From assembly GCA_021836035.1 (NCBI GenBank), contig JAKBJL010000001.1:138142-202141 (forward strand): DNA of 64,000 nucleotides. The letters are read 5' to 3'. This document shows, piece after piece, positions 3,320 to 62,315 of the stretch. A model generated the notes under the pieces. The model saw only the letters and a list, made by a program, of their open reading frames with translations. It made no database searches and had not been told where the DNA came from. The first letter of the stretch is position 1. The number at the start of each line of letters is the position of its first letter. This stretch comes from a bacterium (GTDB lineage: Bacteria > Patescibacteriota > Microgenomatia > JAMCZE01). The position numbers and the translations under genes were made by a program.

Positions 3320-4425
3320 TCACCAAAACCCGACGGCGGATCGCCAAGCACGACCGCCTCTTAAAAGCCGCTTTGTCGGCCGGTTGCTTCTTTATTCTGT
3401 TTTTCCTGGCAACCACCTTTTTCCTGCCGGCGGCCAAACTATTAAAGGAAACCGTTTTCGGAACGGTTAATCCGCTGGCGGTTGTTTTAGGCACCGGCCC
3501 GGCCTTAAAAAGCGATGAGGGAAGGACCAATATTTTACTGCTGGGTATCGGCGGAGGATCTCATGAGGGCCCGGATTTAACGGATACAATGATTATCGTT
3601 TCCCTTCCCAATAGCTCTCGGCCGCCTGTCTCTTCCGCTGCCGGAACAATTTATCTGGTCACCATCCCCCGGGACATCTACCTCGCAGACCTCAACGATA
3701 AAATTAACTTTGCTTATTCCTTCGGTCAGGAAAAAAGAAGCGGGGGCGGCTTGACCCTCTCGGAAGCCGCCGTGCGACAGGTAACCGGTTTACCGATTCA
3801 CTACGGCATCCGCGTTGACTTTACCGCTTTTGAAAAAATCATTGACCTGGTGGGCGGAGTGGACATCGAAGTGGAACGGGCTTTTGACGATTTTCAATAC
3901 CCGCTTGCCGGTAGCGAAACCGACAACTGCGGTTTTACACCGTCAGAGCTGGCTGCCCGGGAAGCCACTATGTCTCTGGAAATTGCCTACCCCTGCCGCT
4001 ATGAGCATCTGCATTTTGCCGCCGGTCTGACGCATATGAACGGCGCGACGGCTTTAAAATTCGTCCGCAGCCGGCATGCGGAGGGAGAAGAAGGTTCCGA
4101 TTTCGCCCGCTCCCGCCGCCAGCAAAAACTTATACTGGCATTCAGAAATAAATTGCTTTCCCTGCCTAATTTGCTTTCACCGCAAAAAATGCTGGAGATT
4201 TATAAAACACTCAAAAGTCATGTGGATACCGATGTCGGCAGCGGGGAAATGAATACTTTTTTACGTTTGTGGCTAAAACTTAAAGACAGCCCGGTAAAAA
4301 ACATTAATATCGATGAGAATCTTCTGGTAAACCCGCCGATTGACCAGCGGGGCTGGATTTTACTGCCGCGGGATGCCGACTTCACCGAAGTTCACGACTT
4401 TCTCCGGAAACAAATCTTTCCTTAA
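3298..4425 (+). CDS. LytR-CpsA-Psr (LCP) family cell-envelope glycopolymer transferase
   Basis: N-terminal TM anchor followed by an LCP core (NILLLGIGGG...DLTDTMIIVSLP...TIPRDIY...INFAY). Confidence 0.75.
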   Translation: MSSYRLLITKTRRRIAKHDRLLKAALSAGCFFILFFLATTFFLPAAKLLKETVFGTVNPLAVVLGTGPALKSDEGRTNILLLGIGGGSHEGPDLTDTMIIVSLPNSSRPPVSSAAGTIYLVTIPRDIYLADLNDKINFAYSFGQEKRSGGGLTLSEAAVRQVTGLPIHYGIRVDFTAFEKIIDLVGGVDIEVERAFDDFQYPLAGSETDNCGFTPSELAAREATMSLEIAYPCRYEHLHFAAGLTHMNGATALKFVRSRHAEGEEGSDFARSRRQQKLILAFRNKLLSLPNLLSPQKMLEIYKTLKSHVDTDVGSGEMNTFLRLWLKLKDSPVKNINIDENLLVNPPIDQRGWILLPRDADFTEVHDFLRKQIFP

Positions 4426-9562: not shown

Positions 9563-11251
9563 ATGAGCCAAACAATTGTACCGCCAATGAAAAACCTTTT
9601 CAACAACGGAAAGAGCTTGCTGTTCTTACGCCAGACCAACATTCTTTCCGCTGCCACGGTGATCGCCGCCGCGGTTCTTGCGGCCAAAATACTGGGTATC
9701 ATCCGCTATTGGCTGCTGGCAGTTTATATCCACCCTATCGCCGACCTGGATCTGTTTTTTGCTGCTTTCCGTATCCCCGACTTTATCTTTCAGGTCCTGG
9801 TCATGGGTACGCTTACGACCGCTTTTATCCCCGTCATTGCCGGTTTTTTAAGCTGCGGACAGCAGGAGAAAGCCTGGCGCGCCGCTTCTACCGTCATCAA
9901 CGCGGCTCTGGTTATTTTTGTCGTTTTAGCCAGCATCGCTTTTTTCTTCGCCCGCGATCTCTCCATTATTGTTGCTCCCGGTCTTTCCCAAAATCCCCAA
10001 AACCTTGTCGCGCTGACAAACCTCACAAGAATTATGCTTTCCGCCCAAATCTTCTTTATTCTTTCCAATTTCCTCTCCGCAATCATCCAATCCACCAAGC
10101 GTTTTCTCATCCCGGCCCTGGCCCCGGTCGCTTACAATTTCGGAATTATTATCGGCATCGTTCTGCTTTCTCCCTATATCGGCATTTACGGTCCCGCTTG
10201 GGGTGTCGTTTTGGGGACGCTTTTGCATTTTTTAATTCAGGTTCCCCTGATTAAGCATATCGGCCTGCGTTATGAGGCCAAAATCAACCTTGCCGACCCG
10301 GGGGTCCGCGAAATCGGCCGTCTCCTGGGACCGCGCACTTTTGGCCTGGCGGTAGCCCAAATCAGCTTTACCGTAGATACCGCCCTGGCCTCGCTCCTGG
10401 CTACCTCCTCGATTACTATTATTAATCTCTCCCAAGCGCTTCAGCAATTCCCGATCGGAATTTTCGGCGCGACGATCGCCCAGGCAGCTCTTCCTACTTT
10501 GTCTGAGGAACAAGCAAGGGAAAATCTGGACAATTTTAAAACCACCCTCCTGAACTCCTTTCATCAAATTCTCTTTCTGACGCTGCCGGCAACCGCCCTG
10601 ATTATCGTTTTGCGCATTCCCGTCGTGCGGTTGGCTTTCGGCGTCGGCAACAGCAATTTTCCCTGGCCCTTAACCGTTCTCACCGGCAAAACTTTGGCGG
10701 TTTTCGGCTTGGGCATTGTAGCCCAAAGCTTAGTCAATCTCCTGGTCCGCGCTTTTTATGCCCTAAGAGACAGCATCACTCCTGTCAAAATCGCCGTGGT
10801 CTCCTTCCTGGTCAATATCGTCTTAAGCCTGACGTTTATTGTTGTTTATAAACTTCCCGTCTGGGCGCTGGCTATCAGTTCCGTCAGCGGAGACCTGGTT
10901 TACTTTTTATTGCTTTTGGCCCTTCTTGATTACCGCCTGCATTTCAACCACCGCCAGCTCCTGTTCCCTGCCGTCAAAATGTTTTTGGCGGCCCTGGCCA
11001 CCGGGATCGCTCTTTATATTCCCATGAAGCTTTTGGACCAATTGGTTTTTGATACGACAAAAACCATCCCCTTAATTATGCTTACCGGTGTCGCCGGCGC
11101 CGTCGGCCTTTCCGTCTATCTTTTCCTTACCTGGCTTTTAGATATTCCGGAGCTTAAGGCTTTCCTGGGGCTAGTCCAGCGCCTGGGACAAATCCGGCAA
11201 ATTTTTACACCTCCGGCCGAAGTCTTGGAAGTGGTTGAAGAACATGGATAA
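9563..11251 (+). CDS. murJ: Lipid II flippase MurJ (MviN)
   Basis: 562 aa polytopic protein. FRIPDFIFQVLVMGTLTTAFIPV matches the MurJ N-terminal signature. Confidence 0.8.
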   Translation: MSQTIVPPMKNLFNNGKSLLFLRQTNILSAATVIAAAVLAAKILGIIRYWLLAVYIHPIADLDLFFAAFRIPDFIFQVLVMGTLTTAFIPVIAGFLSCGQQEKAWRAASTVINAALVIFVVLASIAFFFARDLSIIVAPGLSQNPQNLVALTNLTRIMLSAQIFFILSNFLSAIIQSTKRFLIPALAPVAYNFGIIIGIVLLSPYIGIYGPAWGVVLGTLLHFLIQVPLIKHIGLRYEAKINLADPGVREIGRLLGPRTFGLAVAQISFTVDTALASLLATSSITIINLSQALQQFPIGIFGATIAQAALPTLSEEQARENLDNFKTTLLNSFHQILFLTLPATALIIVLRIPVVRLAFGVGNSNFPWPLTVLTGKTLAVFGLGIVAQSLVNLLVRAFYALRDSITPVKIAVVSFLVNIVLSLTFIVVYKLPVWALAISSVSGDLVYFLLLLALLDYRLHFNHRQLLFPAVKMFLAALATGIALYIPMKLLDQLVFDTTKTIPLIMLTGVAGAVGLSVYLFLTWLLDIPELKAFLGLVQRLGQIRQIFTPPAEVLEVVEEHG

Positions 11252-13211
11252 TCCTTCGACTGCGCTCAGGACGGGTCCTTCGACTTCGCTCAAGACAAGC
11301 CTTCCCCGGTCTCTTATCCGCAATTTTTGCATCATCGCCCATGTGGATCACGGCAAATCCACTCTGGCTGACCGCTTTTTAGAAATTACCGGATCGGTCA
11401 GCAAAAGCGGCCATGCTGAGCAACTTCTCGATAACCACCCAATCTCCCGCGCCCGCGGCATCACTATCCGCCTCGCCCCCGTTACCATGCATTATTCCTT
11501 AATTCGCAATTCGCAATTAGATAATTATCAATTAAATTTGATTGATACTCCCGGCCACGTCGATTTCAGTTATGAAGTGGAACGGACGCTTTCCGCCTGC
11601 GAAGGAGCGATTTTATTAGTTGACGCCACCCAGGGTATCCAAGCCCAGACCCTTTCCCATTTTCAGAAAGCGCAAAAGTTGGGATTAACTATTATTCCCG
11701 TGATCAACAAAATCGATATGCCTAACGCACGGACTGCTGAAACAGAGAAAGACTTACATGAATTATTCAATTCGCAACCCCGCAATAGCGAGGTTCCGAG
11801 TGAAAACGAGGGACTGGATAATTCGCAATTCCCAATTCTTAAGGTTTCTGCCAAGACCGGAGAGGGAGTGCAGGGCTTATTGGAAGAAGTGATTAGGAAA
11901 GTGCCGCCTCCGGCCGGTAATCCCGATGGTCCGGCGCGCGCTCTGGTTTTTTCTTCCCAATTTGCTGCCCAAAAAGGTGTGACCGCATTTGTCCGAGTCT
12001 TTGACGGCAAGTTAGAAGGCCGCGGAAAAATCCGTTTTTTGGCCGCCGGACTGGAAGCAGCTGTTTTAGACCTGGGCCACTTTTCCCCGGCCATGCTCCC
12101 CACGGAGGCCCTCGGAACCGGAGAAGTTGGTTACCTTACCACCAATCTTAAAGATCCGTCGCTCGTCCGTGTCGGCGATACCATCACCACGGAAAATTCG
12201 CAATTCGCAATCCCTCGACAAGCTCGGGATTATCCCGAGCGAAGCCGAAGGACAATTCACAATTCGCAATTGATTCCGTTACCCGGTTACCGCGAAATAA
12301 AGCCCATGGTTTTTATCAGTCTTTTCCCGGTCGACCAGAACGATTACGCGCTTTTGGAGGACGCCCTGGAAAAATTAAAACTCAACGATGCAGCGCTAGC
12401 TTTTTCTCCCATGGGCTCTAAAGTCTTAGGCCGCGGGTTCCGTGCCGGATTTTTAGGGCACCTTCATGCCGAAGTTTCCCGGGAACGGCTGGAAACCGAT
12501 TTCGGGCTGAATGTTCTCGCCACCACCCCCACCGTTGAATACCGAATTCGCAATTCGCAATCTCTCGACAAGCTCGGGATTATCCTGAGCGAAACCGAAG
12601 GACAATTTGCAATTCGCAACTATGAGGAACCTTGGGTTTTAGCTACCGTCATCCTCCCCCAAAATTATGTCGGCCCCATAATGTCCCTGAGCAAAGATCA
12701 CCGGGGAATTTTAAAGAATATGGTTTATCACGGCAATAATGTCACTCTAACTTACGAAATCCCGCTGGGGGAAATTATTACCGATTTTTTTGACGAGTTA
12801 AAGTCGCGCACTTCCGGTTACGGCAGTCTCGATTATGAATTTTTGGACTACCGTCCTTTCGATGCCGTTACCCTGGAAATTTTAATTAACCACGAGGCGG
12901 TCGATGCCTTTTCCCAAATTCTGCCAAAGGAAAAAGCGGAAAGCTACGGCCGTTTTTTGGTGGAGAGACTAAAAGAAGCTATCCCCCGCCAACAAATCCC
13001 CATTATCATTCAAGCAGCCATAGATAACCAGATTATTGCCCGCGCCGATATTGCCGCTTACCGCAAAGACGTAACGGCCAAACTTTACGGCGGGGACCGC
13101 ACCCGCCGGGATAAACTGCTGGAAGCGCAAAGAAAGGGCAAAAAGAAAATGCGGCAGATCGGCCGCGTGCAAATCCCCGGCGACACTTTCCTCAAAATCT
13201 TTAAAACCTAA
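11235..13211 (+). CDS. lepA: Elongation factor 4 (LepA), 658 aa with several in-frame repeat-derived segments
   Basis: G-domain motifs AHVDHGKST, DTPGH and NKID, then the LepA C-terminal region. About 55 aa longer than typical LepA because of the repeat segments described separately. Confidence 0.9.
   Translation: MKNMDNPSTALRTGPSTSLKTSLPRSLIRNFCIIAHVDHGKSTLADRFLEITGSVSKSGHAEQLLDNHPISRARGITIRLAPVTMHYSLIRNSQLDNYQLNLIDTPGHVDFSYEVERTLSACEGAILLVDATQGIQAQTLSHFQKAQKLGLTIIPVINKIDMPNARTAETEKDLHELFNSQPRNSEVPSENEGLDNSQFPILKVSAKTGEGVQGLLEEVIRKVPPPAGNPDGPARALVFSSQFAAQKGVTAFVRVFDGKLEGRGKIRFLAAGLEAAVLDLGHFSPAMLPTEALGTGEVGYLTTNLKDPSLVRVGDTITTENSQFAIPRQARDYPERSRRTIHNSQLIPLPGYREIKPMVFISLFPVDQNDYALLEDALEKLKLNDAALAFSPMGSKVLGRGFRAGFLGHLHAEVSRERLETDFGLNVLATTPTVEYRIRNSQSLDKLGIILSETEGQFAIRNYEEPWVLATVILPQNYVGPIMSLSKDHRGILKNMVYHGNNVTLTYEIPLGEIITDFFDELKSRTSGYGSLDYEFLDYRPFDAVTLEILINHEAVDAFSQILPKEKAESYGRFLVERLKEAIPRQQIPIIIQAAIDNQIIARADIAAYRKDVTAKLYGGDRTRRDKLLEAQRKGKKKMRQIGRVQIPGDTFLKIFKT
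11247..11295 (+). repeat. Imperfect ~20-bp tandem direct repeat inside the lepA N-terminus
   Basis: CCTTCGACTGCGCTCAGGAC / CCTTCGACTTCGCTCAAGAC encodes PSTALRTG-PSTSLKTS. It sits in front of the conserved IRNFCIIAHVDHGKST start of the G domain. Confidence 0.7.
11501..11518 (+). repeat. (AATTCGC)x2.5 heptanucleotide tandem repeat inside lepA
   Basis: aattcgcaattcgcaatt, translated in frame as LIRNSQL. Confidence 0.8.
11768..11837 (+). repeat. Degenerate AATTCGC-type repeats flanking a ~13-aa extra segment in lepA
   Basis: caattcgcaaccccgcaat ... aattcgcaattcccaatt encodes NSQPRNSEVPSENEGLDNSQFPI. This lies between NKID and SAKTG, a stretch about 13 aa shorter in typical LepA. Confidence 0.65.
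12195..12271 (+). repeat. 77-bp palindrome-containing mini-element, copy 1, in frame in lepA
   Basis: AATTCGCAATTCGCAAT, then ccctcgacaagCTCGGGATtATCCCGAGcgaagccgaagg, then ACAATTCACAATTCGCAATT. Heptad repeats flank a perfect 8+1+8 palindrome. Encodes NSQFAIPRQARDYPERSRRTIHNSQL, about 18 aa more than orthologs have between GDTIT and LPGY. Confidence 0.8.
12544..12620 (+). repeat. 76-bp mini-element, copy 2 (about 93% identical to copy 1), in frame in lepA but read in a different frame
   Basis: gaattcgcaattcgcaatctctcgacaagctcgggattatcctgagcgaaaccgaaggacaatttgcaattcgcaac encodes IRNSQSLDKLGIILSETEGQFAIRN. Confidence 0.8.
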
Positions 13212-13252: not shown

Positions 13253-14113
13253 ATGCGGCGGTTGTTAATTTGTTCTTTATTTCTCGTCCTTAGCGGTTAC
13301 ATTATTAATTTAGCCAAAAATGATCATGTAGCATTAGCGGCAGAAAACCCCGGCCAATTCCGTTGTCTCTGGTACACATCCGGTTCGAGCTATTGTGGCA
13401 CGGACATAAACGGAAATTCCTGTCAGTCGGGATATAGTGAAGTTCCCCAAATTTGTCTGGAAATAAAAAACCCCTCGGAATGTGACTCCGCTTCCTTTGG
13501 TTGTGTAGAAAAAGCCGGACCCCGGTATAGTTGTAAAAAGAATCAGGGGTGTGTACAGGACCCAAACGGTTACGATAGTTTGACTTCTTGCCAAAATACC
13601 TGTAAAGAACTCGGGGCTGTTAAATGTCCTGAAGGGTGTACCACATATGGCTTGGGTAGCGTCTGCTATGCAGAACCATTAGATATACTTCTTCCGAAAC
13701 CCTGCGAGAGCACTCTCTGTATCCCCTCGGCCGGAGATAAATACACTCAGTATTACTATGATCAAAAAAGTAAGTTTTGTTACTCCGTCAGGCGTGATTT
13801 GAGTCCGGTTTTTCTTTGCGTCGAAGACGGTAGTTGCCAAACCGCTATCGGCACAATATTCGCCAGCCCCGAGGATTTGGTTAAAGTCATTATGCAACTA
13901 GTGATAGGGTTGGTCGGGGGCGTTGCGCTTCTAGTGCTAATTTTAACCGGTTATCAGCTAATGACCTCCTCCGGTGATCCGCAAAAATTAGCGGTTGCTA
14001 AAGAACTAATTGTTTCCGTTATAACCGGTATTCTCATGATCGTTTTTTCCATGGTATTATTACAGGCAATCGGAGTGGATATCTTAAAAATTCCCGCGCT
14101 GGTCGCGCCCTAA
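13253..14113 (+). CDS. Secreted Cys-rich protein with a C-terminal two-helix VirB2/TrbC-like pilin module
   Basis: Signal peptide and about 26 Cys, then GLVGGVALLVLILTGYQLMTSSGDPQKLAVAKELIVSVITGILMIV. This C-terminus is paralogous to the three downstream small proteins. Confidence 0.5.
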   Translation: MRRLLICSLFLVLSGYIINLAKNDHVALAAENPGQFRCLWYTSGSSYCGTDINGNSCQSGYSEVPQICLEIKNPSECDSASFGCVEKAGPRYSCKKNQGCVQDPNGYDSLTSCQNTCKELGAVKCPEGCTTYGLGSVCYAEPLDILLPKPCESTLCIPSAGDKYTQYYYDQKSKFCYSVRRDLSPVFLCVEDGSCQTAIGTIFASPEDLVKVIMQLVIGLVGGVALLVLILTGYQLMTSSGDPQKLAVAKELIVSVITGILMIVFSMVLLQAIGVDILKIPALVAP

Positions 14114-14114
14114 A

Positions 14115-14465
14115 ATGAGATTCCCGGGTTTTAGAACCATCGAGCTGCCCAACGGCTTCCCTACCGGAGGCTTGAGTATTATTGCTACGATCATCGTCAA
14201 TTTAGTATTGCTAGCCCTGATTATTATCTTTATTCTCGCCTTTTCTTACCTGGTTATCGGCGGTCTTAAGTGGATTGCCTCCGGCGGCGACAAACAAGCC
14301 CTTGCTTCCGCCCGGTCTGCTATTACTTATGCTGTACTTGGACTTGTACTTGCGCTGGTTTCTTTTGCCATAATTAACTTTGTCTCCTGCTTTTTTGGCA
14401 TTTATCTTGGTTTAGGAGGTGGCTGTTGGTCTACTGCCCAAATTACCCATGGGCTTACTCCATAA
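14115..14465 (+). CDS. Small two-helix membrane protein, VirB2/TrbC-like pilin candidate (paralog 2)
   Basis: A hydrophobic helix, a loop (IGGLKWIASGGDKQALASARSAI), a second helix, and a GLTP terminus. Starts 1 nt after the upstream stop. Confidence 0.5.
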   Translation: MRFPGFRTIELPNGFPTGGLSIIATIIVNLVLLALIIIFILAFSYLVIGGLKWIASGGDKQALASARSAITYAVLGLVLALVSFAIINFVSCFFGIYLGLGGGCWSTAQITHGLTP

Positions 14466-27434: not shown

Positions 27435-28178
27435 CTACCTTCCTCCTAATTTTCTGAATTTTATCACGTATTGTTCCAGTCCGCCAAGACCGGAGATACG
27501 AAACTGTTGATAAATAGCCAATAAACTGCTTACCGACCAATATAAAGCCAGTCCCGCGGGCCATTGTGTCCCCAAGAACAGAAACATCAGGGGGAACATC
27601 CAGATCATGGAAGACTGCGCTTCGGCAAATTCGCCCATGAAATCACTTTTCTCTTGTTTTTCTGCGGGCTTATCTTCTTTTCTAATCTTGGGGGCTGTGG
27701 GCATCATCATTTTGGTCTGGATAAATTGAGTCAGGGCGGCGATGACTACTAAAATTCCGGGTACGGCAATCGGTATGCCGGTAAGATGATAAGCGTCAGG
27801 TTTAGCCATATTCCAAACAAAAAACTCCGTATTTACTTTCATACTCAAAATTCTACTGAGAGCACCTAAAAGACCGAAAAGAATAACTATCTGGACAATA
27901 CTGGGAAGGCAGCCGGCCGCGGGGTTAACTCCGTGTTGTTTAAAAAGATCCATTTGGGCGGTAGCGAATGCCTGCTGGTTGCCTTTATGTTTTTCCTTGA
28001 GGGCATTAATATGCGGCTGCAGCTCAGACATTTTTTTACTGTATTGCACTTGCTGTTTGATAACCGGATAAAAAATAAGGCGGGAAAGAACGGCAATCTC
28101 CACAATAGCAACTCCCAGATTATGAAAACCCACCGTGCTGTAAATGAAGAGAACAATTTGTAAAAAAAACTCCGTCAT
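27435..28178 (-). CDS. yidC: Membrane protein insertase YidC/Oxa1 (short Gram-positive type)
   Basis: 247 aa with 5 TM helices. Conserved gene context yidD-yidC-jag. Confidence 0.8.
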   Translation of the reverse strand: MTEFFLQIVLFIYSTVGFHNLGVAIVEIAVLSRLIFYPVIKQQVQYSKKMSELQPHINALKEKHKGNQQAFATAQMDLFKQHGVNPAAGCLPSIVQIVILFGLLGALSRILSMKVNTEFFVWNMAKPDAYHLTGIPIAVPGILVVIAALTQFIQTKMMMPTAPKIRKEDKPAEKQEKSDFMGEFAEAQSSMIWMFPLMFLFLGTQWPAGLALYWSVSSLLAIYQQFRISGLGGLEQYVIKFRKLGGR

Positions 28179-28191
28179 TAAAATTTAGTAA

Positions 28192-28443
28192 TTATAAATT
28201 AGAAATTCCCGGAACCGGGTCGTTGCCTCCTTTGTTCCAGGGATGGCAGCGGATAATACGTTTTAGGCCCAGCCAAAGCCCCGGAATTGTACCATATTTT
28301 TCTACCGCTAGATAGGTATATTCACTGCAGGTTGGAATGAAACGGCAGGCCTTGTCGGTTAAAAACAATAAACGGAAGACTCCGCCGTCAAAAGAGAGAT
28401 ACTTCTGGTAAAAACGAATTAGGAACAAAACGAGATTCCGCAC
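28192..28443 (-). CDS. yidD: Membrane protein insertion efficiency factor YidD
   Basis: CRFIPTCSEYTYLAVEKYG...RCHPWNKGGNDPVP matches the YidD signature. Confidence 0.8.
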   Translation of the reverse strand: MRNLVLFLIRFYQKYLSFDGGVFRLLFLTDKACRFIPTCSEYTYLAVEKYGTIPGLWLGLKRIIRCHPWNKGGNDPVPGISNL

Positions 28444-29114: not shown

Positions 29115-30503
29115 ATGAACCCCGGCGATATTTGGAAAACGGTTCTGGCGGAAATTGAAGTAGACCTGGGGAAAAGCACGACCAAAATTAACTTCAGTAA
29201 CAGCCGGCTTTTATCCCTGGAAAAAGGTATTGCCAGGATATCGCTGGCAACCAATTTAGCCCGGGAAACCGTGGAAAAAAGATATTATGTTCTGCTGCAA
29301 AATGCCCTCGAACGACAAAGCAAAGAAAAATTATCGCTTGTTTTTGAAGTAATCAAACCGGAGCTGGCCGCTCCCGCCGGACCACTCTTTGAAACCCTCA
29401 ACTTTCCGGAACAGGTCAATAAACCGGATATCAGCCGGACAGACAGTTTTAATCTGTCCAATACCGAAGAACAATACCGTAAAACCGGTCTCAATCCCAA
29501 GTACAGTTTAAAATCTCTGGTGGTCGGCGCCAGCAACAATTTTGCACACGCCGCGGCTATGACCATCTGTAAAAACCCCGGGAAAGAATATAATCCCTTC
29601 TTTATTTACGGCGGAGTCGGAGTTGGTAAAACCCACCTTATGCAGGCCATCGGCAATGAACTTTTTGTCCGCAACTCTAATCTGCGGATTTTATACATAA
29701 CCGCCGAGCATTTTATGAACGATCTAGTCGCCTCTTTACAACAAAAAACTATGCCTGCTTTCAAGAAACGCTATCGGGAAGTCGATGTTTTATTAGTGGA
29801 CGATATCCAGTTTATTTCCAAAAAAGAAGCTATGCAGGATGAGTTTTTCTATACTTTTAATTCCTTATTTATGGGCGAGAAGCAGATTATTCTTACCTCC
29901 GATCGGCCGCCGCAAGAAATCCAGGTCGAGGACCGGCTTCTTTCGCGCCTGATGGGCGGTTTAGCCGCAGATATTCAAACTCCTGATCTGGAAATGCGCA
30001 TCGCTATTATTAAACAAAAATTATCCGCCCGGCGAGAAAACTGGGATGAGGCTTCGATAGAATACCTGGCTACCCGTTTGGAAAACAACATCCGGGAAAT
30101 TGAAGGTGCTATGCAAAAAATTATGGCCGTCTCCCAGTCCGCAAACACGCCGGTAAATTTGGATTTGGTTAAAAAAGCCCTGGGAGTAGCCAACGGCCTC
30201 GATAAGCCCCCGGTTCCGGCTTCGCCGCAAAAAATTATCTCCGCGGTTTCCAAAGTCTTCGGGATTAAACAGGGAGATATTCTTTCCGATAAGCGCGATG
30301 CGGAATTTGTTTTACCCAGGCAGGTAATCATGTTCCTTTTACGGACGGATTGCCGGATTAAACTGGAAGAGGTTGCCCGGATTATGAAACGCAAAGACCA
30401 TACGACGGTTATCCACGCCGTGGGGAAAATTGAGAAACAGTTTGCGGATAATCAACAGCTAAGGCAACAGATTTTGTTGATAAAACGGGAAGTTTGGGGA
30501 TAA
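29115..30503 (+). CDS. dnaA: Chromosomal replication initiator DnaA
   Basis: AAA+ Walker A GGVGVGKTHL, Walker B LLVDDIQF, and a C-terminal DNA-binding domain (TDCRIKLEEVARIMKRKDHTTVIHAV). Confidence 0.9.
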   Translation: MNPGDIWKTVLAEIEVDLGKSTTKINFSNSRLLSLEKGIARISLATNLARETVEKRYYVLLQNALERQSKEKLSLVFEVIKPELAAPAGPLFETLNFPEQVNKPDISRTDSFNLSNTEEQYRKTGLNPKYSLKSLVVGASNNFAHAAAMTICKNPGKEYNPFFIYGGVGVGKTHLMQAIGNELFVRNSNLRILYITAEHFMNDLVASLQQKTMPAFKKRYREVDVLLVDDIQFISKKEAMQDEFFYTFNSLFMGEKQIILTSDRPPQEIQVEDRLLSRLMGGLAADIQTPDLEMRIAIIKQKLSARRENWDEASIEYLATRLENNIREIEGAMQKIMAVSQSANTPVNLDLVKKALGVANGLDKPPVPASPQKIISAVSKVFGIKQGDILSDKRDAEFVLPRQVIMFLLRTDCRIKLEEVARIMKRKDHTTVIHAVGKIEKQFADNQQLRQQILLIKREVWG

Positions 30504-30761
30504 CTTACCCAAACTGTCCACAAACTGCCGGGAATTATCCACAAAGATATCAACAAGAAAAGTTCAATTATCAACAGAGATAATCTTAAGCTTAAAGCTA
30601 ATAGTTAATGGCTAATAGGTTAATAGATGACAAGAACAAAATAAAATGCATTTATCAACATTATAAATCAGACTGGCCAGGCTGGGCTGCCCACAAATAC
30701 ACAAAGACTACTAACAAACAAATACTAATTGTAAATAGGAAAGGGGGCGGCTAAGATTACA
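30504..30761 (+). promoter_or_regulatory. Candidate oriC: a DnaA-box cluster plus an AT-rich unwinding region in the dnaA-dnaN spacer
   Basis: Perfect TTATCCACA at 30537-30545. Box variants TGTCCACAA (30516-30524), TTATCAACA (30569-30577 and 30652-30660) and ATATCAACA. An AT-rich tract at 30585-30670. Confidence 0.6.
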
Positions 30762-31901
30762 ATGATGAAACTAGAAATATTACAGGAAAATTTGCTGAAG
30801 GGTCTCTCTATGGTAGGACGGGTGATCACTTCCAAGCCGCAAATGCCCGTACTGGCAAACATTCTATTGGAAACCGATAACGGCAGATTAAAACTCAGCG
30901 CTACGGATTTGGAAATCAGCATTACCACCTTAATCGGAGTCAAAATTCTTAAAGAAGGCAAATATACCATTCCGGCTAAAACTTTCGCGGAACTGGTCGG
31001 TAGCCTGCCTCCCGGGAAAGTGGAGATGGAATTAGAAGAAGGCCAGTTGGCGATAACCGCCGGCCGGTTTAAAGCCAAAGTTAACGGTGTACCGGCGCAG
31101 GAGTGGCCACTAAAGGCGATGGAAGGTAAAAAAACCGCAGGTTGGAAATTGGAAATCGCCGCGGAGGAATTCATTGTCGGTGTTGCCTGTACTTCCTTTG
31201 CTGCCGCCGCAGACGAGGGTCGGCCTGTACTTACCGGAATCTTATTTAAATTAACCGATTCCGGTTTAACCATGGTGGCTACTGACGGTTTTCGCTTATC
31301 GGTAAAAAAACTGGCAGCCGTAAAGGCGGAAGGAAAAGGGGAAGAAACAAGATCCTTTATTATTCCAGTGAAAGCGCTACAGGAGGTTGCCCGCATTTTG
31401 AGCGAGAATAAAGAATTAAAGATATTAAAAATCAATCTTACGGAAAACAGCGCGGATTTTGATTTGGGAGATACCCAGCTTTCTGCCCGTTTAATTGAGG
31501 GGCTTTATCCTGCATATGAAAAGATTATTCCCGGCGCTCCGGTGATTAAAGCCCGGGTCGGACGGGAAGAATTAGCTTCCGGGATCCGGACAGCCGGGGT
31601 TTTTGCCCGCGACAGCGCTAATATCGTCAAATTTGTTTTAAACAAATCTCAATTTTTAGTCAAAGCGGTAGCCGCTCAAGTAGGAGAGAATGAAAGCGAA
31701 ATTGACGCTAAAATCGAAGGGATAGAAGAGGAATTGGCAATTGCTTTTAATTTCCACTATCTATTGGATCTTTTAAATTGTGCCGGGAAAAGCGAAGAAC
31801 TGACTTTGGGTTTTTCCGGTCCTCTGGCCGCCGGGATGTTTAAAATCTCCGACGATCAGAGCTTCCTGCATATTATTATGCCTGTTCGGGTGCAGAGCTA
31901 G
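30762..31901 (+). CDS. dnaN: DNA polymerase III beta sliding clamp
   Basis: MKLEILQENLLKGLSMVGRVI...LANILLE...LKLSATDLE, a three-domain 379-aa protein. Lies next to dnaA. Confidence 0.85.
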   Translation: MMKLEILQENLLKGLSMVGRVITSKPQMPVLANILLETDNGRLKLSATDLEISITTLIGVKILKEGKYTIPAKTFAELVGSLPPGKVEMELEEGQLAITAGRFKAKVNGVPAQEWPLKAMEGKKTAGWKLEIAAEEFIVGVACTSFAAAADEGRPVLTGILFKLTDSGLTMVATDGFRLSVKKLAAVKAEGKGEETRSFIIPVKALQEVARILSENKELKILKINLTENSADFDLGDTQLSARLIEGLYPAYEKIIPGAPVIKARVGREELASGIRTAGVFARDSANIVKFVLNKSQFLVKAVAAQVGENESEIDAKIEGIEEELAIAFNFHYLLDLLNCAGKSEELTLGFSGPLAAGMFKISDDQSFLHIIMPVRVQS

Positions 31902-46543: not shown

Positions 46544-47629
46544 TTAACTGTTAAAGTCCAACCCCGGGTCAGCGTCAACTTTTCCGACAGGAACCGGATG
46601 GTGATTAAAATAAGCCGCGGAGGCGATATAGGCTGCGTTGTCGGTGCATAACTTTATCTTGGGAACATGAATTGCGAATTGCGAACCGTCAAATTGCGAA
46701 TTAAGTTTCTCGCGGAGGCGGGAATTAGCTGCGACGCCGCCGGCCAACAGAACGGACCGGGTACGGAATTTTTCCGCCGCCCGGAGGGTTTTATATACCA
46801 GGACATCGGTGACGGACTCCTGCAGCTCAGCAGCCAGGGCTGATGAAAAGAAGATTTCTTCTGCAGAAGAAATCTTCTTTTTTAGCTCATTAGCCACCGC
46901 AGTTTTGAGGCCGCTGAAACTGAAGTCAAATTGCTTGTCATAAAGCAACGGACGGGGCAATTTAATTTGGAATTTGGAATTTGGAATTTGGAATTTGGAA
47001 GCCGCAGCTTCTATTGCCGGGCCGCCGGGGTAGCCGAGGTTTAACAGCCGGGCACATTTGTCAAAACATTCGCCCGCAGCATCGTCCCGGGTCCCCCCAA
47101 GCCGTTTAAATTTTCCATGGTTTTCCATAAGCACTAATTCCGTATGGCCGCCGCTGACAATAAGAACGACGGCGGGGAATTCCGGCCTCGGGCTATTTGC
47201 CCCGCCCAGCCAATTCGCATAAATGTGGCCGACCAAATGGTTAACGGGAACAAGCGGTTTATTCCAGGCAAGGGCTAAGGCCTTGGCTGTTTCCACGCCG
47301 ACGAGTAAACTGCCGATCAGACCGGGACCGACGGTCACGGCAAGGGCATCTATATCAGAGGCTAGCGGATGGCGGTAAGTATATAGACCGGGTAATATTT
47401 TTTCTTTACGCTTTACGCTAAACGCTTTACGCTCCGGATTTAAGGCTTCATTTATCACCGGAATAATCGCCCTAATTTGTTCCCGCGCGGCTTGTTCGGG
47501 AATAATCCCGCCGTATTTGGCGTGAATTTCCTGCGAACTGGCAACCACATTAGAAACAATTTCCGTGCCATCTTTTACGATAGCAGCTGCCGTTTCGTCA
47601 CAGGAGGTCTCGATAGCGAGGATTGTCAT
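46544..47629 (-). CDS. tsaD: tRNA N6-adenosine threonylcarbamoyltransferase TsaD (Kae1/Qri7 family), with in-frame heptad-repeat segments
   Basis: MTILAIETSCDETAAAIV start. HxxGH metal site (NHLVGHIYANWL). SGGHTELV, GYPGGPAIE, LCTDNAAYIA. 361 aa against about 335-340 for typical orthologs. Confidence 0.85.
   Translation of the reverse strand: MTILAIETSCDETAAAIVKDGTEIVSNVVASSQEIHAKYGGIIPEQAAREQIRAIIPVINEALNPERKAFSVKRKEKILPGLYTYRHPLASDIDALAVTVGPGLIGSLLVGVETAKALALAWNKPLVPVNHLVGHIYANWLGGANSPRPEFPAVVLIVSGGHTELVLMENHGKFKRLGGTRDDAAGECFDKCARLLNLGYPGGPAIEAAASKFQIPNSKFQIKLPRPLLYDKQFDFSFSGLKTAVANELKKKISSAEEIFFSSALAAELQESVTDVLVYKTLRAAEKFRTRSVLLAGGVAANSRLREKLNSQFDGSQFAIHVPKIKLCTDNAAYIASAAYFNHHPVPVGKVDADPGLDFNS
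46669..46702 (-). repeat. (GCAATTC)-type heptad repeats inside tsaD, the same family as the lepA repeats
   Basis: Plus strand gaattgcgaattgcgaaccgtcaaattgcgaatt; the minus strand encodes LNSQFDGSQFAI. Confidence 0.75.
46964..46998 (-). repeat. (AATTTGG)x5 heptanucleotide tandem repeat inside tsaD
   Basis: Five perfect tandem units; the minus strand encodes SKFQIPNSKFQIK. Confidence 0.85.
47404..47433 (-). repeat. (CTTTACG)x4 heptanucleotide tandem repeat inside tsaD (one unit CTAAACG)
   Basis: Encodes ERKAFSVKRKEK. It lies within a segment of about 24 aa that is absent from typical TsaD, between the ALNP and DIDALAVTVGPG regions. Confidence 0.8.
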
Positions 47630-54955: not shown

Positions 54956-55807
54956 ATGCAGTTAAAGCGCAACCAGATTAAAACCCTGGCCTATTCCGAC
55001 TTATTTAACTATCCCCTAAGCGGCAAAGAGCTGAAACTTTGGGAAATCTCCGTGGGCCAGAAGGAGTCGGGTGAAAGCAAAATAAAAACCGGGCACCGCG
55101 ACGGCTTTTATTTTTTGCCCGGAAGAGCGGGCTTAGTGAATTTGCGCCGGGAGAGAGAAAAATATACGGCGGAGAAAAGGGTAAAAGGACAGGATGTTGC
55201 CAGGGTTCTGCAACGGATTCCTTTTGTTCGGGCAATATTTTTAACCGGCTCGGTTGCCGCCGGCAGCGCGGAGGAAAACGCAGATATTGATTTAATGATT
55301 GTGGTTCAACCCGGAGCCTTATGGCTGACCAGGCTTTCCGTCGTTACCTACCTGAAAATTAAAGGAATTTATTCGGGCCGGACTGGCCATAACCGGAATA
55401 AAATTTGCCCGAATATTTTTTTAGACCTAAATCATTTGCCAATTGCCGAGAGAAATTTATTCACGGCGCATGAAGTGTTACAGGCCCAGTGTCTTTTCGA
55501 TCGGGGAGGAATAGAAAAGCTGTGGTTTAAGAAAAACCCCTGGACAAGGGAATTTTTACCGAACATTTTTCAGCTTAAAGTAAAAGGCTTAAAGCAAATA
55601 GCCAAAACCAGGAATGCAGGCAGGGGGGACTTTTTGTGGTATCTAATTCTCCCCCTTGAGCTTTTAGCCTTTAGCCTCCAGTTGGTTTATATGAAGCCGA
55701 AGATGACAAACGAAAATGTTGGACTGGGTTTTGCTTTCTTCCATCCGCGGAATATTTCCGCTATTATTTTGCAACAATGGCAAAAAAGACTAGAATTACT
55801 AAAGTGA
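54956..55807 (+). CDS. Nucleotidyltransferase-fold protein
   Basis: A GS...D.D signature (FLTGSVAAGSAEENADIDLMIVV). Confidence 0.5.
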   Translation: MQLKRNQIKTLAYSDLFNYPLSGKELKLWEISVGQKESGESKIKTGHRDGFYFLPGRAGLVNLRREREKYTAEKRVKGQDVARVLQRIPFVRAIFLTGSVAAGSAEENADIDLMIVVQPGALWLTRLSVVTYLKIKGIYSGRTGHNRNKICPNIFLDLNHLPIAERNLFTAHEVLQAQCLFDRGGIEKLWFKKNPWTREFLPNIFQLKVKGLKQIAKTRNAGRGDFLWYLILPLELLAFSLQLVYMKPKMTNENVGLGFAFFHPRNISAIILQQWQKRLELLK

Positions 55808-57543
55808 AAAAGCTCGCCGCCGTTGTTGGCATTCTCTTTGCGCTTTCCGCTTTCCGCCTTACGCTTTCCGCTCCGATTTTTTCTGCCGAGTGTTCCTCTT
55901 CCTGTTCTAATGATGATTTGGATAACTGCATTAAAGAATGCAATAAGCTCTTGGATATATCTATCAATGCCACCAAGCCGCACGAACAGCGGATGGAGCA
56001 GCTGCAGGAAACGATCGCTAACATTGACGCAAACGTCGAGACTTTAACCGGACTGATTGCCCGCAAAAAAGCCCAGATTGAAACCCAGGAAAAAAAGCTC
56101 GGGGGACAGCAAAAGGATTTTGAGGTAAAAGTCCGTAATTATTATGAAAAAAGCTACCAGTTCGGAACCAATTATTTATATACCGTATTATTTTCCCACC
56201 ACAATACCGGGGATGCCGTGCGCAACATTTCCTACCGCCAGAATTTTATTAACAGCGATAAACAGACAATTACCAATTTGGTTTTGCAGTTGATTGATCT
56301 AAATAAAGCCCGGGAAACCCTGGAGGAAAACCAAAATCAATTAACAAATCAAAAAGCGCAGCTGGAAACGATTTTGGCCCCGATCCGGGATCTCGTTAAG
56401 GGAGCAAAAGCTTATCAGTCGCAATTGTCGCAGACAGCAGCGGGCTTGACGAAACGCCAGGAGGAATTGTTGGCGCAGAAAACCGGCAATTTCCAGACCA
56501 GCGTCGGGGATGTGCCGCCCGCGGATGATCCGGCCTCCCGTCCGGACTATAATCCCGGTTTTAGCCCTGCATACGCCGGCTTTTCTTTCGGCGCCCCGCA
56601 CCGCAAGGGGATGAGCCAATATGGAGCTTTCGGCCGGGCCAAACAGGGGCAAAGCGCCGAAGATATTTTGAAAGCTTATTATGGCGGCAGCATCGAGATT
56701 AAAAAAGATTATTCCACTTCCGTAAATATTGCCGTTCAGGGTTACGGGACATATAAAATTGAAGATTACGTTAAAAGAATTTACGAAGTGCCGAACTCCT
56801 GGGGCGACGAGGGCGGTTACGAAGCGCTCAAGGCGCAGGCAGTTGCGGCCCGCTCTTATGCTTTGGCATATACCAGTAACGGTTCCGGTTCCATTTGCGC
56901 GAGCGAATCCTGCCAGGTTTTCCAGGCTGGAGAAAAAGGCGGGAACTGGGGAAGGGCGGTAGATGAAACGCGCGGTTGGGTACTGGTAGCAAACGGCCAG
57001 CCGTTTTCCGCCTGGTACGCCGCTACCTCCGGCGGGTATAACTACTCTTATGCAGCTAATGGTTATAGTACTCCCGGCGGCTGGGATACCAAATGCGGCA
57101 ACCAATCCTGCTGGACTAACGACGCTTATGAAAAAATCGCGGGCAGCCCCTGGTTTTATAAAGCTTGGTACCGGCCGCGCTACACAAGTCCCAGCCGTTC
57201 CCACCCGTGGCTTAATAAGGAGGAGTTTGTCGATATTGTTAATGCGGTACTCTTGTTTGTCAAAGATAACGGTACCCTTTCTCATTTATCCCAGACCGAC
57301 AAATCCAATCCCGATACCTGGTCACGCGACGAGGTCCGCAGCCACCTGGGCGGCGATGCCGTTTCCGAAGTAAACGGTATTTCCGTAACTTATAGTACCG
57401 GCGGCTATACCAGCAGCGTGCATCTGGAAACGGATAAGGGGGGAAAAGACATAGGCGGCGATATTTTTCGCCAGATTTTTAATATCCGGGCTCCGGGCGA
57501 AATCTGGCTGGCCAGCGCTCTTTTTAATATCGAGAAAAAATAG
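55777..57543 (+). CDS. SpoIID/LytB-domain protein with N-terminal anchor and coiled-coil
   Basis: AVAARSYALAYTS...CASESCQVFQAG...SAWYAATSGGYN matches the SpoIID amidase-enhancer domain. Confidence 0.7.
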   Translation: MAKKTRITKVKKLAAVVGILFALSAFRLTLSAPIFSAECSSSCSNDDLDNCIKECNKLLDISINATKPHEQRMEQLQETIANIDANVETLTGLIARKKAQIETQEKKLGGQQKDFEVKVRNYYEKSYQFGTNYLYTVLFSHHNTGDAVRNISYRQNFINSDKQTITNLVLQLIDLNKARETLEENQNQLTNQKAQLETILAPIRDLVKGAKAYQSQLSQTAAGLTKRQEELLAQKTGNFQTSVGDVPPADDPASRPDYNPGFSPAYAGFSFGAPHRKGMSQYGAFGRAKQGQSAEDILKAYYGGSIEIKKDYSTSVNIAVQGYGTYKIEDYVKRIYEVPNSWGDEGGYEALKAQAVAARSYALAYTSNGSGSICASESCQVFQAGEKGGNWGRAVDETRGWVLVANGQPFSAWYAATSGGYNYSYAANGYSTPGGWDTKCGNQSCWTNDAYEKIAGSPWFYKAWYRPRYTSPSRSHPWLNKEEFVDIVNAVLLFVKDNGTLSHLSQTDKSNPDTWSRDEVRSHLGGDAVSEVNGISVTYSTGGYTSSVHLETDKGGKDIGGDIFRQIFNIRAPGEIWLASALFNIEKK

Positions 57544-61649: not shown

Positions 61650-62315
61650 AACGGGCTAAAGTAAGCGCGAAGACTTTCGGAAATCCCACATGTTTTAAGA
61701 CTGACCCGCAGCTTTTTAGGGTCGTCCCTGTTGTCCAAATGCCATCGACAAGAATGAGCGTATAACGGTTAGCGGAAAGCGTAAAGTTGAAACTGGGATT
61801 AATAGCGAAAATACCGGCCACATTTTTTGCCGCTCCTTTTCGGAAAGGCCCCGCTGTGATTCGGTCAGTGTGGTTCCGTTGAGTAAATTTTCCGCGACCG
61901 GAATACTTAGTTGTTTACTTAATTCCCGCGCCAAACTCGTTGACTGATTAAATCCGCGCTGTTTTTCCTTCCACCAATGCAGCGGTACCGGAATAAGAAG
62001 AAGATTGTCAAACTGTCTTTTTAAAATTGTGATCTACGGCTGAACAGCGCTTTGCTCCAATAAAATTTTTATCAGCCCTGCGGAAGCCGCGAAAGTGAAC
62101 GGCCGGAATTTTAAACGGCTGATAGCGTTTTTGATCGGTTGCTGATAAATAAATCCCGATAACAATCCGTCGAGGGAATATTTTGTCTGACAGCGGAAAT
62201 GGGTCCGGCCATGAATCGCGGGATATTCACAAACCGGGCAAACCCGGGGATTAACCGAATAATTTTCCCGGCAATCCTGACAAAAATAAACCCCGGTTTT
62301 CCACGCCCCAAACAC
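61650..62315 (-). pseudogene. comFC: comFC-like (ComF amidophosphoribosyltransferase family) gene disrupted by an in-frame TAG and a frameshift
   Basis: N-terminal zinc finger (CQDCRENY...CPVCEYP). A TAG stop at 62034-62036 (minus strand), then the in-frame IPVPLHWWKEKQRGFNQS ComF motif. A later +1 shift within an A6 run is needed to reach the PRTase motif LVDGIWTTGTTL...ALTLAR. Confidence 0.6.

Follow-up and report, generated by a model that had tools for sequence, protein, structure and literature searches.

Heptanucleotide Arrays and Hairpin-Bearing Blocks Kept in Frame in lepA and tsaD of a Patescibacteria Genome

Repeats in lepA

The window considered here, a stretch of 64,000 nt from contig JAKBJL010000001.1 (GenBank assembly GCA_021836035.1), belongs to a metagenome-assembled genome (MAG) of the Patescibacteria, or candidate phyla radiation (CPR). 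It includes lepA, the gene of elongation factor 4 (EF4), and tsaD, a gene of t6A synthesis. Both contain tandem arrays of heptanucleotides (heptads), and in lepA some of these arrays enclose a hairpin core (Table 1). The lepA product was matched to the LepA of Aquifex (PDB 2ywe) with E = 4.9e-167 and to solved LepA/EF4 structures overall with E = 1e-157 to 1e-167, and its GTPase motifs are intact. In the public gene call, the protein begins at an ATG codon at 11244 and consists of 655 amino acids (aa).

Table 1. Genes, heptad arrays and hairpin-bearing blocks of the window (positions are those of the window; ORF, open reading frame).
Feature	Position	Strand	Remarks
lepA (elongation factor 4)	11235..13211	+	658-aa ORF, TTG start at 11235
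Direct dimer of 24-nt unit (CCTTCGACTGCGCTCAGGACGGGT / CCTTCGACTTCGCTCAAGACAAGC)	11253..11300	+	Encodes N-terminal extension PSTALRTG PSTSLKTS
AATTCGC array, 2.6 units, without core	11501..11518	+	LepA site 1, beta-hairpin turn of G domain, ~3 aa added
Heptad-core-heptad block, diverged 42-nt core at 11778-11819	11769..11837	+	LepA site 2, ~14-16 aa longer than orthologues
Copy A, 75-nt block	12195..12269	+	Heptads 12195-12211, core 12212-12253, heptads 12254-12269; encodes NSQFAIPRQARDYPERSRRTIHNSQ
Copy B, 75-nt block	12545..12619	+	Heptads 12545-12561, core 12562-12603, heptads 12604-12619; encodes IRNSQSLDKLGIILSETEGQFAIRN
tsaD (t6A synthesis)	46544..47629	-	Hosts three heptad arrays
AATTCGC-type array, NSQFDGSQFAIH on tsaD sense strand	46667..46702	-	No added length as compared with Thermotoga TsaD
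CCAAATT x5.3 on sense strand (AATTTGG on +)	46964..47000	-	Encodes SKFQIPNSKFQI; unit number polymorphic
AGCGTAA x4.3 on sense strand	47404..47433	-	tsaD; second unit is AGCGTTT
CTTTCCG x5.3	55836..55872	+	N-terminal hydrophobic (signal-anchor) segment of SpoIID-domain gene 55777-57543
Degenerate CGTAAAG/CGGAAAG-type array	61756..61786		Intergenic DNA

Six AATTCGC arrays were found in lepA. A scan with the motif AATTCGCAATTCGC, allowing up to two mismatches, gave 10 matches in the window against 1.19 expected from shuffled sequences, and none of 100 shuffles reached this number. Seven of the matches belong to lepA (11501, 11508, 11820, 12195, 12254, 12545 and 12604), where the initial annotation of this DNA had counted at least five, and three belong to tsaD (46667-46702), in agreement with its statement that the same heptad family occurs there. 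The exact 17-mer AATTCGCAATTCGCAAT is present three times, and the remaining three lepA sites differ from it by 1-2 mismatches.

The two 75-nt blocks, copy A and copy B, are built in the same way from 17 nt of heptads, a 42-nt core and 16 nt of heptads, i.e., 2.4 heptads on each side. The identity of ~93% reported earlier was reproduced, and the units turned out to be slightly shorter than the 76-77 bp first proposed. The palindrome CTCGGGATtATCCCGAG, previously regarded as perfect in both, is perfect in copy A (12223-12239) and contains one mismatch in copy B (CCTGAG). The starts of the copies are 350 nt apart (350 = 3x116+2), and the copies are therefore read in different frames without interruption of the ORF, with the peptides originally quoted. 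The peptides of the two copies are unrelated; translation would give sequences such as QARDYPER and SLDKLGIILSETEGQ spanning the blocks.

The core is a GC-rich hairpin of 42 nt that interrupts the heptads in three lepA arrays and consists of an inverted dimer of a ~21-nt unit, GTCCTTCGRCTTCGCTCRRGAY. Its left arm is CCCTCGACAAGCTCGGGAT, and its right arm, when reverse-complemented, is GTCCTTCGGCTTCGCTCGGGAT. The N-terminal extension of LepA is encoded by a direct dimer of CCTTCGACTKCGCTCARGAC, 16 of 19 positions of which are identical to the reverse-complemented right arm. Since the arm-type unit occurs as an inverted dimer in the core and as a direct dimer in the extension, a shared building unit of ~21-24 nt is indicated. 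When the window was extended to 78.7 kb of the source genome (GCA_027371575.1, DAHXMT010000002.1), four matches to the arm motif were found in this span, all inside lepA. In a global alignment of the site-2 core with the core of copy A, the score was reached by 26 of 2000 shuffles; with this marginal support, the block at 11769-11837 is possibly an older, degraded third copy of the same module.

RNA folding of the copy A block gave -21.5 kcal/mol for the sense strand (z = -3.3) and -37.2 kcal/mol for the antisense strand (z = -6.3). The antisense RNA folds better because UUGCGA is self-complementary through G-U pairs. In the antisense RNA of 12195-12269 (minus strand), the entire block, including the heptads, forms one long hairpin.

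Inserts in LepA Loops

Nearly all of 69 close Patescibacteria homologues of this LepA (56-64% identity) lack the N-terminal extension, the site-2 block and both 75-nt copies. The extension was found in none of these relatives (0/69), and copy A is an insert relative to all of them. Copy B adds no length as compared with Aquifex and Thermus LepA and is a 25-aa insertion as compared with the close relatives, which have ~3 aa at this place. Since the close clade shrank this region to ~3 aa, copy B represents an insertion on that background. The length differences from orthologues claimed by the initial annotation thus hold against both the solved LepA structures and the 69 close CPR homologues, and the lack of the segments in the latter speaks against conserved ancestral sequence. 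LepA lengths among homologues range from 526 to 731 aa.

An AlphaFold model of LepA, built with 40 homologues, had a pTM of 0.76. Its predicted local distance difference test (pLDDT) fell below 50 only at residues 4-16, 189-193, 326-340 and 440-455. These segments correspond, in this order, to the N-terminal units and to the cores of site 2, copy A and copy B. A location of the inserts in tolerant loops agrees with this model. Taken together, the homologue comparison and the prediction support the view that the lepA inserts are additional sequence that leaves the reading frame intact and lies in loops absent from relatives and left unplaced by AlphaFold.

The frame is kept by every array and block, and neither block copy has a stop codon in the frame in which it is read. 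Of the six frames of block A, five are open (P = 0.006 as compared with shuffles; 4.8% of native 75-mers of the window reach this number), and the substitution weakening the stem in copy B creates TGA solely in an unused frame. Judging from this frame maintenance, the inserts appear to be translated.

The LepA protein (P0001) is identical on five large contigs, there are independent assemblies with lengths of 343,325 and 343,976 bp, and relatives share the architecture, which argues against an assembly artefact. In a neighbour-joining tree, LepA sequences with an insert at site 4 stand beside insert-free sisters at least six times, a pattern suggesting repeated gain or loss of site-4 inserts across the LepA clade.

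Some other changes were observed at sites 3 and 4. The ~25-aa hairpin of Aquifex and Thermus LepA is cut to 3 aa in most of the CPR clade, and one CPR subclade (among P0035-P0066) has lost the GDT...PLPGY segment of domain II, where the sequence reads KIxLWE-GY.

Period-7 Arrays in tsaD and Other Parts of the Window

Exact period-7 tandem arrays number eight in the window against 0.3 expected from dinucleotide-preserving shuffles, and no exact arrays with periods of 8-12 were found there. Together, lepA and tsaD hold 6 of the 8 arrays and occupy less than 5% of the window; 7 of the 8 are inside ORFs. The heptamer families of the window are AATTCGC, AATTTGG, CTTTACG and CTTTCCG, and the microsatellite heptamers of lepA and tsaD are AATTCGC, its relative AATTCCA, and CGTAAAG. 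In the AGCGTAA array of tsaD, the deviating unit AGCGTTT, as read directly from the codons, stands exactly where an in-frame TAA would fall. This stop-removing substitution points to selection at the level of translation.

Arrays in tsaD change by whole 7-nt units, and in one assembly this breaks the frame. Contig k141_542298 of an independent assembly (ENA ERZ27233560) was aligned with positions 36882-57629 of the window; the alignment of 20.7 kb contains no mismatch and just one gap, of 7 nt. The gap is one CCAAATT unit in tsaD (4 units against 5), as a result of which the gene is split into ORFs of 246 and 117 aa. The 5-unit allele was found on four large contigs and the 4-unit (broken) allele on one.

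Turnover of the Repeats in Relatives

Four relatives have inserts at matching loops of LepA, and in their lepA DNA these are made of other heptamers (CAGTTMT, ACGTATA, AAATTAG, GAAATTG, AAAATTG and GAATTAW). Some of them have the heptad-core-heptad structure and some are inverted arrays, and in the locus of each of these relatives exact heptad arrays are confined to lepA. Most of 44 TsaD relatives contain peptides with a 7-aa period at two of the sites that hold arrays here, e.g., KFEIRNSKFEIKLP, QFSISNSQFSIKLP and KYQILNTKYKIHLP, and one TsaD protein often has the same peptide motif at both sites. These peptides at orthologous sites indicate that the arrays are old there, with the unit sequence turning over. 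In one genome (GCA_023380635.1, locus L231), the heptamer ATTTCAA occurs at 3580-3595 and 3991-4021, in tpiA, and at 10190-10205, in lepA. On these comparisons, the heptads seem to behave as evolving microsatellites that have long occupied the same loops throughout the clade.

The occurrence of ATTTCAA in the unlinked conserved genes tpiA and lepA of GCA_023380635.1 mirrors that of AATTCGC in lepA and tsaD here. The P0040 LepA, encoded in the same locus (L231 ~11031-11174), contains a palindrome of ~135 nt that is inserted in frame. Its terminal inverted repeats, AAGATTTTGGGT and ACCCAAAATCTT, are perfect over 12 bp, and the RNA minimum free energy is -65 kcal/mol over 171 nt. The insert is placed at the same LepA loop as copy B (site 4), and similar peptides were found in P0015 and P0047. 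By its sequence, the P0040 insert is truly similar to a Rickettsia palindromic element (RPE) or a miniature transposable element with inverted repeats (MITE).

Searches for Dispersed Copies

No copy of the 42-nt core was found outside lepA in the 78.7 kb of the source genome. An exact scan with the core AAGCTCGGGATNATCCYGAGCGAA over 185,579 species, each represented by one genome and the source genome not being among them, gave 0 matches. A left-arm pattern matched 93 loci in JGI metagenomes, and none of these was flanked by heptads. Many of them represent a widespread intergenic sequence, GATCCCTCGACAAGCTCGGGATGAC..ATCC, and others are coding coincidences (LDKLGI), so that they were rejected as core copies. 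Eight matches of a relaxed structural pattern on viral contigs were likewise discarded, all being chance matches in high-GC DNA. When the five open-frame translations of the core were compared with a collection of 5.8 billion proteins, one word-sharing candidate was obtained and nothing scored; this negative carries little weight, since the index requires several 5-mers in common. Rfam gave no family for the motif on 12 motif-bearing metagenome loci, and only tRNAs and glycine riboswitches were recognized elsewhere on them.

Transposases, transposases of the REP-associated tyrosine transposase (RAYT) type and reverse transcriptases are absent from the gene tables covering the region, and there is one faint HTH_Tnp_1 match ~9 kb past the window end. 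The AAT...AAT bracket of the core was considered as a target-site duplication; it is inconsistent in a planctomycete locus described below (L002) and was left as a mere hint.

The motif GATCCCTCGACAAGCTCGGGATGAC(N0-3)ATCC recurs, apparently intergenically, on metagenome contigs (among L134-L226) with a GC content from 0.42 to 0.71, for instance at L136 3913-3936 and L143 6712-6737 and in L156 and L214, and corresponds to no Rfam family. The motif has its left arm in common with the core in lepA, and short hairpin units may therefore form a superfamily of very wide distribution. On two metagenome contigs with GC ~0.34, a tRNA-Arg(CCG) gene has an insert of ~47 nt in the D-loop/D-stem (L172 218-336, SDBT01126468.1; L190, SDBV01016548.1). 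The insert contains GGGATTATAATCCCGAGCTTGTCGAGGG, the reverse complement of a core-type hairpin. The gene was not called by ARAGORN and obtained 29.6 bits with Rfam; it is either a disrupted gene or one whose insert is removed from the RNA.

Comparison with Known Repeat Systems

A genome scan with AATTCGCAATTCGC-N25-55-CAATTCGCAA revealed at least 120 loci of the AATTCGC-gap-AATTCGC type. Among the matches listed, 62 of 120 are from Nostocales, and the others come from further cyanobacteria, Chloroflexota, Acidobacteriota, Spirochaetota, Bacteroidota, Planctomycetota, Proteobacteria and one SR1 genome. The gaps in Nostocales are typically a short GC-rich module bracketed by AAT...AAT, such as AATGACGCTCGCGGACTCGCTAACGC. 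Only one public match among those listed resembles the 75-nt block. This is L002 6228-6296, in a Planctomycetaceae MAG (CAYQJH010000188.1), where a 39-nt hairpin core, CCCTCGACTTCGCTCGGGACCCTGAGCCTGTCGAAGGGC, lies between AATTCGC heptads. It is clearly related to the lepA core, stands downstream of a stop codon in seemingly intergenic DNA, and is preceded by heptads in inverse orientation.

Two kinds of cyanobacterial sequences are close to this arrangement, namely short repetitive heptanucleotides repeated in tandem (STRRs) and small dispersed repeats (SDRs). The Nostoc SDRs of Elhai et al. 2008 are said to be units of 21-27 nt that share a hairpin and are often situated inside tandem heptameric sequences, sometimes in nested or dimeric form, and Vioque 1997 reportedly placed STRRs inside the RNase P RNA gene. 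The likeness to STRRs consists in several tandem 7-nt families per genome and in the same AATTCGC heptamer, abundant in Nostocales. With SDRs, the lepA modules share ~21-nt hairpin arms, inverted and direct dimers, and a core embedded in AATTCGC arrays. The function of STRRs was reported as unknown in one account (PMC2670836), and, among the cyanobacterial genomes rich in highly iterated palindrome 1 (HIP1) examined in another, SDRs were confined to the Nostocaceae lineage (PMC5861425). The host in our case, however, belongs to the Patescibacteria and not to Nostocaceae or heterocystous cyanobacteria, and its arrays are in frame inside essential protein-coding genes, whereas STRRs are mostly non-coding. 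The lepA module also has no visible similarity to the Nostocales modules and is present in 2-3 block copies (four arm copies) instead of hundreds.

The initial annotation had proposed an analogy with RPEs. These elements, known from Ogata et al. 2000 (Science 290:347), are described as short in-frame inserts in conserved genes, at positions compatible with the fold, which are tolerated as an extra peptide (PMC10969869). This part of the analogy stands, since the lepA blocks are in frame at structurally tolerant sites; the idea of a dispersed mobile family is not supported, as the 78.7 kb contain no copies outside lepA, whereas RPEs form dozens of dispersed copies (44 in R. conorii). RPEs are ~105-150 bp long, palindromic throughout and provide one conserved peptide per element, whereas the lepA block is 75 nt long, has a hairpin only in its central 42 nt, ends in direct heptads and is read in two frames.

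MITEs carry terminal inverted repeats and target-site duplications. The termini of the lepA block are direct, (AATTCGC)n, without terminal inverted repeats, and only a weak AAT...AAT bracket surrounds the core. Small GC-rich hairpins are shared with repetitive extragenic palindromic (REP) sequences, REPINs and MITEs such as Correia, ERIC and Nezha, and the inverted dimer of the core resembles a REPIN, which is described as a doublet of REP sequences (PMC3116915). REPs, however, are extragenic and depend on RAYT, and no RAYT is present in the gene tables here.

Phase variation through heptanucleotides is known in Haemophilus. Like the contingency loci of this genus (hmw1A), the arrays considered here have a unit length not divisible by 3, and the number of units differs between genomes, with consequences for frame or expression; contingency loci are long arrays in surface and virulence genes, whereas these are mostly of 2-5 units in housekeeping genes of translation. 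In the study of Borg repeats, units within genes were reportedly multiples of 3 nt. A 7-nt unit gives a peptide period of 7 aa per 3 units, and a change by a single unit shifts the frame. The likeness to the Borg tandem repeats is that they are also fast-evolving repeats in ORFs that add disordered segments (PMC9879509).

Origin of the Repeats

In our opinion, which is held with moderate confidence, the repeats are probably slippage-prone heptamer microsatellites with SDR-like hairpin modules, filtered by selection so that they stay in frame in surface loops. The closest known kind would be the cyanobacterial STRR with an embedded SDR, and not a mobile element of the Rickettsia type. The arrays would grow and shrink through replication slippage, and the whole block, with 2.4 heptads per side, may have been copied to a second lepA site 350 nt away by heptad-guided template switching, by gene conversion or by an SDR-type insertion process. 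In a gene-dense genome, selection would leave only those versions whose length is a multiple of three, whose translated frame is free of stops and which lie in disordered loops, so that the inserts would be translated passenger peptides without a required function.

Several points weigh against this explanation. The part read amounts to 78.7 kb, and the whole genome may comprise ~1 Mb, so that more copies may exist elsewhere. The best relative has 64% identity, so that there is no empty site and the insertions are undatable. The same heptamer in unlinked genes (lepA and tsaD here, tpiA and lepA in a relative) is hard to obtain by local slippage alone and suggests some copying between loci. For homologous recombination, arrays of 17 nt are short. 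Translation of the inserts is inferred only from the maintained frame.

The idea that the 75-nt block is a non-autonomous mobile element of the RPE or MITE type, moved by a trans-acting enzyme and harmless in any frame, seems unlikely to us, although it accounts for several features. Two 93%-identical copies with equal numbers of flanking heptads look as if the block had moved as a unit, and block A lacks stops in 5 of its 6 frames. The AAT...AAT bracket of the core, which recurs in the Nostocales modules, could be a target duplication of 3 bp. In addition, P0040, P0015 and P0047 have the ~135-nt palindromic insert in frame at the same LepA loop, and arm-type peptides occur at site 3 of P0068 as well. 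The core is, however, absent outside lepA in the 78.7 kb and among the 185,579 species representatives, and no heptad-flanked copy was obtained from the JGI metagenomes and only one word-sharing protein from the protein collection. The direct rather than inverted termini and the lack of a transposase, RAYT or reverse transcriptase in the region, apart from the faint HTH_Tnp_1 match, also disagree with such an element. It is also quite improbable that the heptad arrays are contingency loci, in which gain or loss of units switches lepA or tsaD on and off as adaptive phase variation. The unit length, the one-unit difference that breaks the tsaD frame in one assembly and the persistence of arrays at the same sites across the clade are what such switches would produce; on the other hand, the lepA arrays have just 2.4-2.7 units and LepA is identical on five contigs, and arrays are also present in a signal-anchor segment and between genes. 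As tsaD is essential in most bacteria, its off state is more readily understood as a deleterious minority allele.

Excision of the hairpin blocks from RNA as intervening sequences, never reaching the protein, is very improbable. It would be in keeping with the strong hairpin in both strands and with the related hairpin in the D-loop of tRNA-Arg(CCG), since this tRNA could work only if the insert were removed or tolerated, but the blocks are in frame and stop-free in the frame used despite being read in two frames, and the stop-removing substitution in tsaD points to translation. No Rfam family matches the scanned motif-bearing metagenome loci, and to our knowledge there is no splicing machinery in bacteria for such elements. 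That all these features result from misassembly or are ancestral LepA sequence is scarcely credible: the source is a MAG and copy B is no longer than the corresponding part of Aquifex and Thermus LepA, but the identical protein on five contigs, the independent assemblies, the relatives from other samples with the same architecture, the 69 close homologues devoid of the segments and the insert-free sisters in the tree all contradict it. A more general and rather doubtful speculation is that genomes, even in their coding regions, receive heptamer arrays and ~21-nt hairpin modules from some other copying process, such as RNA-templated synthesis or a route through single-stranded DNA that may be linked to the lagging strand. 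Such a process would be common to Nostocales, Chloroflexota, Acidobacteriota, Planctomycetota and Patescibacteria. Its signature would be a heptamer of its own in each genome at several unlinked conserved genes, with different heptamers at orthologous loops elsewhere.

Significance

Essential genes are normally cleared of repeats whose unit length is not divisible by three. Heptad arrays have nevertheless survived throughout a CPR clade in lepA and tsaD, and in tpiA of a relative, with heptamers that differ between genomes, and in at least one population they break tsaD. This provides a checkable case of micro-repeats remodelling the surface loops of conserved proteins in very small genomes and, if our favoured explanation is right, would mean that the heptamer/SDR phenomenon of cyanobacteria reaches further phyla and also coding DNA. 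If the general copying process existed, it would be a steady source of disordered loops and occasional frameshift switches in essential CPR proteins. The arrays are also a warning for annotation, as they split gene calls (tsaD into 246 and 117 aa) and inflate variation in protein size (LepA, 526-731 aa).

Neighbouring Features

The window includes dnaA and dnaN (29115-31901), and the minimum of the cumulative GC skew is at ~22-24 kb; together they indicate that the replication origin is close. Short AT-rich tandem repeats with periods of 7-8 and 14 flank dnaA (28177-28207 and 30597-30725). With respect to this origin, lepA and tsaD would both run head-on to replication, with AATTCGC on the lagging-strand sequence (n=2). 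On the 3' side of lepA, there is a cluster of small T4SS_pilin (PF18895) genes (13253-14465 and beyond), and the gene order S20-murJ-lepA-pilin is kept in all relatives sampled.

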